From contig JAZDJU010000098.1 of the NCBI GenBank assembly GCA_043803685.1, positions 1-64,000 of the forward strand: a DNA stretch of 64,000 bases, in the 5' to 3' direction. This document shows, in pieces, positions 25,201-28,200 of the stretch (position 1 is the first letter of the stretch; the number at the start of each line of letters is the position of its first letter). The notes under the pieces were generated by a model. That model was not told where the DNA came from. It searched no databases and worked only from the letters and a program-made list of their open reading frames with translations. A program made the translations under genes and the position numbers. Source of the stretch: Candidatus Omnitrophota bacterium. GTDB taxonomy: Bacteria > Omnitrophota > Omnitrophia > Omnitrophales > Aquincolibacteriaceae.

Positions 25201-28200
25201 ATCTGTTTCTCGATAATGATTTTAGTCGTAAATTGAACGCATTAGCGGAACAAGTTGGAAAGGTTCTTGCGGCGCGCTCGGAAGTGAGGAGCGCTAAAGG
25301 ACAGCGAGAATTTTATAAAAAACAGAAAAAGGCAGCGGACTCATGGCGTACGGACAAAGCAGTTAAAAGCCAGAAAGAGCGGCTTTACAGGCAATTCCAA
25401 CCAGGAGACGTTCTTACGGATTATGCTCACGCTCATTTTTCCCCAAGATCTGTCGCTCCTCAGTGGGGACGTGATTATAACCGAGGGGGATTTCGAAGAC
25501 AGTTGCGTCTTGGGCAAGATGAAAAATACCGTTTTTGGGCGGAGATTCTTGTAACGCGTGATCAGGCAGGGCTTCCCGTGATCGACCGTGAGTGGATCTT
25601 TATTGGCGAGAAAGATGCTTGGGCCAATACGAAGCGTGTCATGTTCGCAGCATTCGCCATTCTGAATGCGGAAAAACCGACTGCTTTCGACGATGCCCGT
25701 GGTTCCATGGAGCTCATGAAAGGTGCTGTCCTGCAAGCTCTCCGTTCGGAGACGAGGGATGCTGAGAATAAAACTGACGGAGAGAAAAGTTTGCGGTTGC
25801 AGTATGCCGAATGGCTGGAGCGTGCGGCGGAACGGGCACGGCAAGAACAAATTCAGTTACATAAATCGGCGGTTGGGAAGTCTTCCAGTGAGAGGGCTTC
25901 GATCTCGATCAATTCGATCTGGGATATTATGAACGGCAAGATAGAACCGCTTAGCGATATCCAACGAGTCCTACGTGATTGGGCCCAAAGGTTCAGAACG
26001 AAAATGAGTGATGATATGGTCACGGGGGAGTTAGCTCAGAAAATTATGTGGCGGATTCCTGAATCCGGCCTGGACGCGGCGGGCCTGGAATTGGCCCTGG
26101 ATATTCTTTTTGAAGAAGAGCCTCCTCGAGCAGACCGTTCTGAGATGCGCGGCAGTACGCCGATGGAGCTTTTGGGGCGTTTGGCCGTAAGCTCCGCGGA
26201 CATGATGTCTTTTCTGAAGATGTATGAAATGCAGATGAACTTGGGGCTTTTAAAGGATGGCCATTCGGAGGGTCATCAGTCGCTTCTTTCCTACGCGCCG
26301 AAGCCGACCGGAAAAGAAAAGGGACTTTATTGGGCCGTGGATTTTGGAGGCACTAATCTTCGTGTGATCGCAGTCCGTTTTGACGGGAAGGGTGGAAGCG
26401 AACAGGTCGGCGAGCCTTTGAAGGTTCGTCTGGATGAGTTGGATCCCGCGATCTTTACCGGAACCGCAGAAAATCTTTTCTCGCGATTCGCGGGACTGGT
26501 GAAACAGCACTTCTTGGCGCTGAAGGCGGCCGGACAGATCTCTACCGAGGAGCTCCAGGAAACCAAGATCGCATTTACTTATTCTTACCCCGCGAAGCTG
26601 AATGGCCGCGCAGATTCAGCTACGGCCGTGCAGTTGGTGAAAAATCTCAAGAACCCGGATCTGGTCGGACAGGATGTCGCGAGGCTTTTTAATGAAGCGC
26701 TCGCAAAAATATCCGATGCCCAGTTTCAGAACGCTCGTGTGCTTGCTGTGGTGAATGATGCTGTTGGGACGCTCGCGGCGGCTGTGGATCCGGAGGTGAT
26801 CGCAGGGATCATTATGGGGTCGGGACATGGCGCGAGCTATGCGGAGTCCATTGCTAAGATCGTGAAGTTCGATGCCGCGAAACAAGGGTGGACTGCGCCC
26901 GATATGATGATCAATCTCGAATCCGCCGATGCGATCTTACCGGGAAATATGTCGTTTTTGACGGAGATCGATCGTGTGATGTTTGTCGAAGAAAATCCTC
27001 TCGGCCAGCGTCCCTATGAAAAATTAATCGGTGGCATGTATCTGCCGGAGCTTTTCCGGCGCTACCTGAAGCAATTCGTGGAGCAGGGCGAGCTTTTTAA
27101 CGGGAAAATGCCCAAGGCCTTGCGCAGTTCCTGGCTCGATAGACGTTCTGTTAGTTTTTTGAAATGGAAGATCACCAGCTCTCTTTTTGTTGGAGCAGTT
27201 AAGATCCTTCAGGATGTTGCGAACGAATGTTTCAAAATACTTTATGCCGCAGTGAAGTGGGATCGGCTAAAAGCGATCCGTTTCAATTGGGTGGACAGTT
27301 CCTCCCAGTCGGTCGTGGATCCTGAGATATTGACACAAATGCAGGTAGGGGATGGCCGGGATGCGGCGCGGGAAACGGCACGGTTGCTCGGGATCCTTGG
27401 TCCTTCAAGCACGGATCTGGATATTATGATCGCGACGGTTCGATCGATCTATCAGCGCGCGGCATATTTAAGTGCTGTGGAACTTATGGCGCTTTCGCTC
27501 CGGGCTTCGCCTGAACTTGACCGGCACGTCAAGATCGCGATCGACGGCAGCTTGTTCGAACATTCGACTTCTTTCAGACAGTGGCTTGTCGAGGCTTTGG
27601 AGGTTCTTGCGGAAGCGCGTTTGGGTGACAGAACGAAGGCTAAGAATATCGAATTGAAATTGGTGAAGGACGGCTCCGGCCTTGGCGCCGCCATGATCGT
27701 CGCGACCCTGGATGCGTCAAGTCGTTCAGAGATGAGAGGAGCCATAACGGGGGAACGTGGAACGGGGAACGCAATCGTTAGCCGTTCATCGCGTGACGTT
27801 ACCCGCGGCGAAGCCGCTCGTGCCGAAATTCGGACACAGATTTTCCATGTTTCTCTTGCGGATCAAAATCTATTCTCCAGAGATGTGCTCACGGCTCCAG
27901 GGGGGATCAGTTTCAAGCTCGCTCGAAAATTTCGCGGCAAGGCGGGCGCTCCAGTTGAGAAGCTCCAGCTGTTGCTTGTGCAAGGTTCCGGAAAGAAAGA
28001 TATCCCTCTCGAATTGGTAAGAGCAAACCATAAACCGGTCAAGATCCCAGGGACCGATAGTTCGATAAAGCTGGTAACGGGGTATTGGGGCGACACTGCA
28101 AGCTTTAAGATCACTTCTCCCCGTGAATCGAGCAGCAGGCCCAGCGTTGTTCCTGGCGCGTCTGCAAAAAGTCCGGAGAGTCGCGAAGTTACCGTGCATG

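Follow-up and report, generated by a model that had tools for sequence, protein, structure and literature searches.

The first 64,000 nucleotides of contig JAZDJU010000098.1 (assembly GCA_043803685.1), referred to here as the window, belong to Candidatus Omnitrophota bacterium, whose genome, this contig included, is labelled G000. The window carries three giant open reading frames (ORFs), all on the plus strand, and the third of these, G3, contains a hexokinase-family module that is enclosed between two copies of the short peptide RSEMR, one form of a joint motif that recurs along the chain (Table 1). Hexokinase is the sole module of G3 recognised in a Pfam scan; the rest of the chain gave no Pfam match, and scanning its 23 other modules one by one yielded only one sub-threshold match. 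An earlier note on this DNA had placed a complete hexokinase exactly between the RSEMR joints at 26136 and 27723, and both the presence of the two Pfam lobes and a confident structural model bear this out.

The 524 residues of the module match Hexokinase_1 with 109.7 bits against a cut-off of 24.3 (E 2e-31, over positions 5-198 of the 201-position profile) and Hexokinase_2 with 131.6 bits against a cut-off of 24 (E 4e-38). All 46 matches among PDB sequences are hexokinases or glucokinases, and NCBIfam returned no family at E 1e-10. The AlphaFold model is confident at both ends (predicted local distance difference test, pLDDT, 86.6; predicted template modelling score, pTM, 0.85), and Foldseek relates it to solved hexokinases (E 4e-26), with rice HXK6 at the top (TM-score 0.74 on the query and 0.82 on the target). 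The motifs DFGGTNLR, ND, LVK, GSGHG, NLESA, YEK, and DGSGLG align with those of the family; the ATP motifs and the catalytic ND are intact, as the earlier note had read them. In particular, the phosphate-1 Asp, the Lys of WTK, the catalytic ND, both glucose-binding Glu residues, and the C-terminal DGSG are kept. A scan for hydrophobic segments found no signal peptide and no membrane helix within the module.

The canonical glucose pocket is incomplete, as the Thr of WTK is replaced by Val and the Asn of GTGxN by Gly; the stand-alone copies of the phylum keep the Thr in 20 of 21 cases and the Asn in all 21. The lost residues presumably correspond to Thr168 and Asn231 of glucokinase. Both are described as glucose contacts in the available part of PMC3567010. 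The deviation of the sugar motifs, as previously claimed, therefore holds for LVK and GSGHG but not for NLESA, in which the glucose-binding Glu is retained. An insertion, earlier put at roughly 50 aa, measures approx. 57 aa (a span of 139 residues, compared with 63-83 in the 21 stand-alone copies), and model confidence is low within this region, at module residues 333-343 and 372-385. A reading of the insertion as a membrane-targeting amphipathic helix is not supported: despite its basic and hydrophobic character, its moment of 0.53-0.54 is no higher than that of an ordinary helix of the fold (0.57).

A similar pattern is found among 25 giant-embedded hexokinases. The Lys and the Asn of ND are present in all 25, the catalytic Asp in 24, and the two Glu residues in 23 and 24, whereas the Thr of WTK is found in only 12 and the Trp of NxEWG in only 5; nearly all motif residues are retained in the 21 stand-alone copies. 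As drift of the sugar site is common to most embedded copies, it is not special to this module. Taken together, these residues suggest that the embedded hexokinase still acts as a kinase, with its sugar pocket loosened.

The family is less rare in bacteria than the earlier note supposed. PF00349 matched in 46 of 401 genomes of the phylum, with 47 matches over the cut-off: 21 in stand-alone ORFs (419-483 aa), 24 in ORFs longer than 1,200 aa, and 2 in shorter contig-end pieces. In the order to which G000 belongs, all 10 matching genomes have the embedded form. A GTDB scan, from which 80 of 195 confirmed loci were kept, placed 33 in Omnitrophota and the others in at least 7 further phyla or unassigned; thus, many bacterial phyla carry the family. 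The closest relative of the module among 1.84 billion representatives is P0025 (300.6 bits, 44%), a giant of 3,665 aa with a head domain like that of G3 and 12 joints, whereas identity to any stand-alone copy is about 30%. The P0025 hexokinase ends at the same joint position, with RSEQR instead of RSEMR, and shares the derived small-lobe sequence of the module; the insertion is mostly missing and the Asn of GTGxN is kept. A metagenome scan with the module alone gave 203 pattern matches, of which none was confirmed, and a word-index search for longer homologues found none among 7,983 candidates, which is weak evidence; the exhaustive search did find P0025. In other lineages, embedded hexokinases are flanked by different short motifs. 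In G035:C14 (L002, L053), the joint-bounded neighbours of hexokinase resemble, by eye, a carbohydrate kinase and a domain of the glucose-6-phosphate isomerase (PGI) type.

The enzyme had also been called eukaryote-type. In quick tree searches without bootstrap, on chosen subsets from which the named embedded loci of the GTDB scan were excluded, a tree with only 3 fungal rows (LG+G4) drew the long-branched embedded copies to the fungi (approximately unbiased (AU) test, p 0.63). Without the fungal rows, a single branch sets all 7 embedded copies of the same order apart from the rest. When 7 eukaryotic rows are included, a six-member group of giant-embedded copies contains both the module and P0025 (SH-aLRT, a Shimodaira-Hasegawa-like approximate likelihood-ratio test, 95), and a grouping with eukaryotes is rejected at the borderline (AU p 0.0497). 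A named Omnitrophota hexokinase falls among stand-alone copies of the same phylum; one contig-end fragment of 589 aa was left out of the alignment. The trees therefore argue against a recent eukaryotic capture. The label eukaryote-type misleads, since the nearest kin of the module are giant-embedded copies and the phylum has stand-alone copies of its own.

The joints that delimit the module follow the pattern [RK][SA]ExR, which occurs 28 times in G3 and is carried by 17 ORFs of G000. Its form RSExR is found 162 times in the 76,279 aa of these 17 giant ORFs and 17 times in the 869,281 aa of all others, a comparison that is descriptive only, as the giants were selected by the motif itself. The joints are not a product of chance, since the motif is abundant in the giants and rare elsewhere. 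RSExR is locked to the reading frame (157 copies in frame and no more than 2 in any other), and no DNA conservation extends beyond its 15 coding bases, in which third codon positions are free. Among 39 merged Pfam regions in all 17 motif-bearing ORFs, none crosses a joint, compared with 12.5 expected. Thus, whole modules make up the chain, and the peptide motif that joins them is frame-locked. An origin of the joints from a DNA cassette or a site of recombination was considered and rejected because of the free third positions, the lack of flanking conservation, and the absence of repeats at module ends. The Ser codon of the motif is TCN in 158 of 162 copies, although AGY is common elsewhere in the same genes, which suggests that the motif spread by copying. 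In two distant genomes, GARL recurs 3' of the head.

The joints appear to mark N-termini, as hydrophobic signals follow them more often than they precede them. Of 148 joints in the G000 giants, 20 have a hydrophobic signal or anchor that begins no more than 40 aa downstream (3.7 expected), and only 4 have one that ends in the 40 aa upstream. Among 352 joints in 30 giants, taken from 8 further genomes of the genus, such segments follow 28 joints and precede 8 (16.6 expected). The G000 giants contain three full Tat signals (RRxF plus a hydrophobic stretch), all of which lie in the 45 aa that follow a joint; stretches of this kind account for 11.5% of the sequence. In G000 and the 8 genomes together, a hydrophobic h-region occurs at 9 of 52 RRxF sites compared with 3 of 137 KK, RK, or KR controls (p 6e-4, overstated as the genomes are kin and not independent samples). 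Tat signals function only from a cytoplasm that contains TatC. However, neither TatC nor TatA was detected in a search of G000 (91% complete) in which 11 of 14 positive controls were matched. A tblastn search of G000 with TatC from 5 relatives gave no match, while the adjacent repressor was found at 79-82%, and the usual position of tatC, as seen in four of those relatives, is taken in G000 by a radical-SAM gene. Among 19 further genomes of the genus, TatC was found in just 3; the 8 compared for joints gave none.

The head of G3 follows an N-terminal Sec-like signal and is a domain of approx. 600 residues that is present in all 61 related genomes and in 3 of 5 distant ones; the latter count led to rejection of the view that it is universal in the phylum. 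The Atlas clusters nearest to it are mostly from Omnitrophota. No Pfam family passed the cut-off (ChaN came nearest, at E 5e-4 in 2 of 12 heads), and a head profile found nothing meaningful among PDB sequences. The structural model (pLDDT 81.5) points to a TIKI/EreA/ChaN fold: the five best structure matches (VIA) all belong to the TIKI superfamily, with Z 8.1-8.7 (at the ambiguity line of the tool), root-mean-square deviations of 3.7-6.2, and 156-184 aligned residues; RRSP reaches Z 5.7. Foldseek found nothing at E below 0.001 (BcR135, E 0.8; ChaN, E 1.4). In 39 of 39 heads, four residues are invariant: His (16500), Glu (16584), Arg (17757), and His (17841). Their order matches the catalytic set of RRSP, with spacings of 28 and 28 compared with 28 and 29; this set, as given in the available text of PMC6254334, served as a reference by order and spacing, without superposition. 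Based on this modelling, the head is a candidate processing protease. A stand-alone head protein of 739 aa (G000:C114:46201-48417) has no joints and retains the His/Glu/Arg/His set; its gene is divergent from a neighbouring giant, and a similar ORF of 753 aa adjoins a giant in G011. Such a protein could act in trans. A further head copy (G000:C115:6558-8459) ends just past its last motif. Insertions in the heads (window 16700-17700 and in other giants) are modelled with low confidence and contain recurring low-complexity peptides; these are probably in-frame repeated DNA elements.

At the other end of the chain, the C-terminus reads [AS]A in 14 of 14 intact-ended G000 giants and in 29 of 30 giants of other genomes, compared with 1.4% of other long ORFs in G000, and a C-terminal helix is conserved in all intact giants. 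The tails resemble ClpX-type C-terminal degrons, and they could act as an export or threading signal. G000 has 5 secretins and 13 over-cut-off matches to the ATPase family of type II secretion systems (T2SS) and pili; around nine giant loci, no secretion operon common to the giants was seen by eye. The prolipoprotein enzyme Lgt is present.

The sister giant G2 has whole proteins between its joints, namely, a PAS histidine kinase with a receiver domain and a glycogen synthase, and lipoprotein-like and Sec-like signals lie directly 3' of G2 joints. G3 contains three pairs of duplicated modules of no known family (18867-19184/20484-20786, 22548-22997/23091-23597, and 29460-29831/29847-30377), which are 39-59% identical within pairs. 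Positions 32501-63717 are occupied by housekeeping genes: tyrS, an ABC transporter, proC, ileS, two-component genes, lgt, menaquinone genes of the futalosine type, folE, and lpxD.

Table 1. Positions of the giant ORFs and of the joints, signals, and domains discussed (window coordinates).
Feature	Position	Strand	Remark
Further giant, 3' part, open at contig start, 5 joints, AA end	2..3013	+	
Sister giant G2, 4,251 aa, head and joints as in G3	3356..16111	+	
Giant ORF G3, 5,358 aa, 28 joints	16287..32363	+	
G3 signal peptide of the Sec type, with basic n-region, hydrophobic core, and A-x-A	16287..16370	+	judged by eye
G3 conserved head domain with large helical insert	16371..18158	+	predicted TIKI/EreA/ChaN fold
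RSELR joint, directly followed by internal lipoprotein-type signal peptide with terminal lipobox Cys	21810..21899	+	
RSEMR joint upstream of hexokinase	26136..26150	+	
Hexokinase-family module, 524 aa	26151..27722	+	PF00349 + PF03727
Insertion of ~57 aa in large lobe, basic, aromatic, predicted helical	27132..27305	+	
RSEMR joint downstream of hexokinase	27723..27737	+	
G3 C-terminal module, kin to tails of other giants, [AS]A end	31656..32363	+	

The hexokinase is an accessory gene product. It is found in 5 of 61 related genomes, while the ROK family, which comprises kinases and repressors, is found in 60 of 61. G000 itself has a stand-alone ROK kinase of 322 aa with glucokinase-type motifs, so the module is apparently not the only glucose kinase of the producer; had it been the only one, this would have spoken against the effector reading of the earlier note. 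Outside its giants, G000 also encodes triosephosphate isomerase (TIM), enolase, and a transaldolase-PGI; as stand-alone enzymes are available, the embedded copies are extras. The sole nucleoside diphosphate kinase (NDK) detected in G000 and its sole full PF00342 PGI lie inside giants. A PF02685 glucokinase was not found, and a search for an ATP/ADP translocase gave no match but is uninformative, as the control families were silent too. One giant (G000:C10:2-11869, L018) has a divergent TIM, a phosphoglucomutase, a full PGI, and an enolase-like domain in series, and across the order the full PF00342 PGI lies mostly inside long ORFs. Another giant (G000:C84:2-4357, L022) contains a region of mTERF-like repeats, a family mostly known from eukaryotes.

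These observations are best accommodated, tentatively and at a little short of an even chance, by a reading in which the module is accessory cargo that would be cut free at the RSExR joints and, inside a prokaryotic cell serving as host or prey, would phosphorylate hexoses with ATP in the cytoplasm. The N-terminal signal peptide would carry the chain out of the producer cytoplasm, and a pilus- or T2SS-like machine might then move it into an attached cell, perhaps via the [AS]A tail. There, the TIKI-fold head or another protease would cleave at RSExR, which would give the modules new N-termini, so that those bearing signals could be sorted by the Sec, Tat, and lipoprotein pathways of the host. 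Free of any signal, the hexokinase would remain in the host cytoplasm and trap sugar as sugar phosphate, probably with a lower affinity for glucose or a changed preference among hexoses. Sister giants may supply glycogen synthase, phosphoglucomutase, and glucose-6-phosphate isomerase as its co-cargo. Hexokinase requires ATP. A site of action inside a host cell is likely because sister modules have Tat signals while the genome appears to lack a Tat machine. An exported head, redundant cargo, abundant pilus and T2SS parts, and the Tat mismatch together make release in another prokaryotic cell the simplest account. The Tat signals, found in a genome without detectable TatC or TatA, thus lend indirect support to the effector role proposed in the earlier note. 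Its description of an exported giant protein stands as far as the Sec-like signal, judged by eye, is concerned; the helix count gives an ambiguous topology for the whole chain, with two or three internal helices upstream of the hexokinase.

Several points weigh against delivery to another cell, apart from the kinship of the compared genomes and the borderline Z-scores of the head. Internal membrane helices would normally block Sec transfer of a single chain, and no machine is known that would pass such a chain on to another cell. Hydrophobic signals show no asymmetry in five giant ORFs of the four hexokinase-bearing relatives (3 after and 3 before 36 joints), and of 6 RRxF-plus-h-region sites in the other 8 genomes, just 1 lies within 45 aa of a joint, with another at 55 aa. 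As the assembly is 91% complete with 6.6% contamination, tatC could be unassembled. Moreover, a Tat-like signal also stands at the start of one ordinary G000 ORF; signals of this type can therefore be retained in the absence of Tat and are probably routed by Sec. The P0025 hexokinase lacks a joint directly upstream, where approx. 200 extra residues are found, and has Gln in place of the second glucose-binding Glu. In the head, the first Glu of the 2His/2Glu set is variable (Asn 26, Asp 4, Ser 3, Thr 3, Glu 3), and several of its fold relatives are not proteases.

Release in another cell is nevertheless favoured over cutting of the polyprotein in the cytoplasm of the producer itself, which is unlikely and yet the strongest of the alternatives. 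The giant would then be an operon written as one reading frame, the hexokinase an accessory enzyme for the cell's own sugar use, and the head no more than the first product, which is exported. The joints, the whole modules, and the internal Sec and lipoprotein signals are explained equally well, no new delivery machine is required, Lgt is present, and the only NDK and full PF00342 PGI detected are in giants. However, Tat signals would then occur without a detectable translocase, housekeeping copies exist already, and the embedded copies are patchy and fast-evolving. As both non-giant head copies in G000 start with signal-like segments, a candidate for a cytoplasmic protease was not found.

It is improbable that the module is a pseudo-enzyme, either cargo in decay or a protein, relaxed or repurposed, that binds sugars or nucleotides, at whatever location. 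Its branch is long, two glucose contacts are lost, the Asn is absent from only 3 of the 25 embedded copies, this one included, and phosphate-1 or catalytic residues are gone in some embedded copies. On the other hand, phosphate-1, the catalytic Asp, the Lys, both Glu residues, and DGSG have been kept despite approx. 30% identity to stand-alone copies, the reading frame and the fold are intact, and the derived small-lobe sequence recurs in P0025.

Improbable to much the same degree is an uncut chain in which RSExR would be a linker or assembly tag of a membrane-anchored multi-enzyme protein, with the hexokinase at the cytoplasmic or outer face. Three internal helices upstream would place the module on the cytoplasmic side, though the count is ambiguous (two or three); at the outer face, an ATP-dependent kinase would be without ATP. 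Internal Tat and lipoprotein signals directly after joints also make little sense in such a protein. It is nonetheless the published reading, as two preprints, in their available text, describe architectures of signal peptide and membrane helices with sugar-metabolism domains (bioRxiv 10.64898/2026.06.07.730766; bioRxiv 10.1101/2023.11.21.568195). A fusion created by assembly or gene calling is hardly credible: the assembly has 133 contigs and 6.6% contamination, but GC is uniform, and independent genomes, namely, P0025 and other hexokinase-bearing genomes of the order, show the same architecture.

The presence of hexokinase domains in Omnitrophota giants is already known, and the hexokinase alone is a modest finding. 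In the accessible part of bioRxiv 10.64898/2026.06.07.730766, hexokinase domains are listed in a giant, one giant has 9 matches to hexokinase PF03727, and the terms 'motif', 'RSE', and 'cleavage' are absent. In the accessible part of bioRxiv 10.1101/2023.11.21.568195, C39 and S8 domains of giants have been suggested to cleave them into several products, at cleavage points described as unknown. The main text of the two preprints, as available and without supplements, contains no junction motif, TIKI-fold head, or host-cytoplasm delivery, and a literature search for Omnitrophota with polyprotein or junction motifs, with subscription journals mostly outside its coverage, found nothing. The accessory status of the enzyme (5 of 61 genomes) and the Tat signals in a genome without detected TatC or TatA are new. 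The hexokinase belongs to an undescribed and likely polyprotein system, and delivery to a host is plausible on genomic grounds, with a specific argument in its favour. Members of the phylum have been argued to be largely predatory or parasitic, according to the available text of PMC10066038.

Current papers regard the giant proteins of this abundant, almost uncultured phylum as enzymes that are anchored in the membrane or lie at the surface. Their role becomes testable with an enzyme that has exact borders and no signal, together with the candidate protease in its chain and the Tat mismatch; host delivery is the part that specialists would find surprising. The general form of the idea, that these Omnitrophota inject self-cutting polyproteins into prokaryotic hosts, whose export machinery sorts the modules and whose metabolism is thereby remodelled, is possible but doubtful. 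If it is true, each genome is a library of giants that release sugar kinases, glycogen enzymes, two-component proteins, and clients of the Sec, Tat, and lipoprotein pathways. The system would then be a protein-level counterpart of phage auxiliary metabolic genes, with hexokinase as its most directly assayable piece.

Several known systems resemble parts of this one. With the PF00349/PF03727 hexokinases (human HK1 and glucokinase, plant HXK1, and the stand-alone bacterial P0007), the module shares the two-lobe fold, phosphate-1, the catalytic Asp, the Lys, and the two Glu residues; it differs in being giant-embedded, in the changed Thr, Asn, and WG of NxEWG, and in the insertion of approx. 57 aa. 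The multi-enzyme giants of Omnitrophota share with G3, as far as their available descriptions go, a signal peptide, membrane helices, and sugar enzymes. Microsporidia secrete hexokinases for which a site of action in the host cytoplasm, or at it, has been proposed (PMC6460350, available part). The parallel drawn in the earlier note is one of functional likeness only, since the microsporidian enzymes carry an N-terminal signal peptide themselves and the hosts are eukaryotes, whereas the module is signal-free and not close to eukaryotic enzymes. The head shares its predicted core fold and the order and spacing of His-Glu-Arg-His with the TIKI/EreA/ChaN superfamily (EreC, BcR135/136, ChaN, HopBA1, and RRSP), but it has a large helical insert, no constant first Glu, and no Pfam match over the cut-off. 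MARTX toxins, in the descriptions available, likewise combine one giant chain, interchangeable cargo, and autoproteolytic release of effectors in the target, which is only proposed for G3; in contrast to them, G3 has no Pfam match to RTX repeats or a cysteine protease, its cargo is ordinary metabolic and signalling proteins, and its likely target is a prokaryote. Viral polyproteins have a short, fixed junction motif and a protease on the same chain, for which G3 has a candidate only, and phage auxiliary metabolic genes are extra, divergent copies of host-type metabolic enzymes. Unlike both, the giants are chromosomal in a cellular organism, with 17 ORFs in one genome, and their cargo would arrive as protein and not as DNA.

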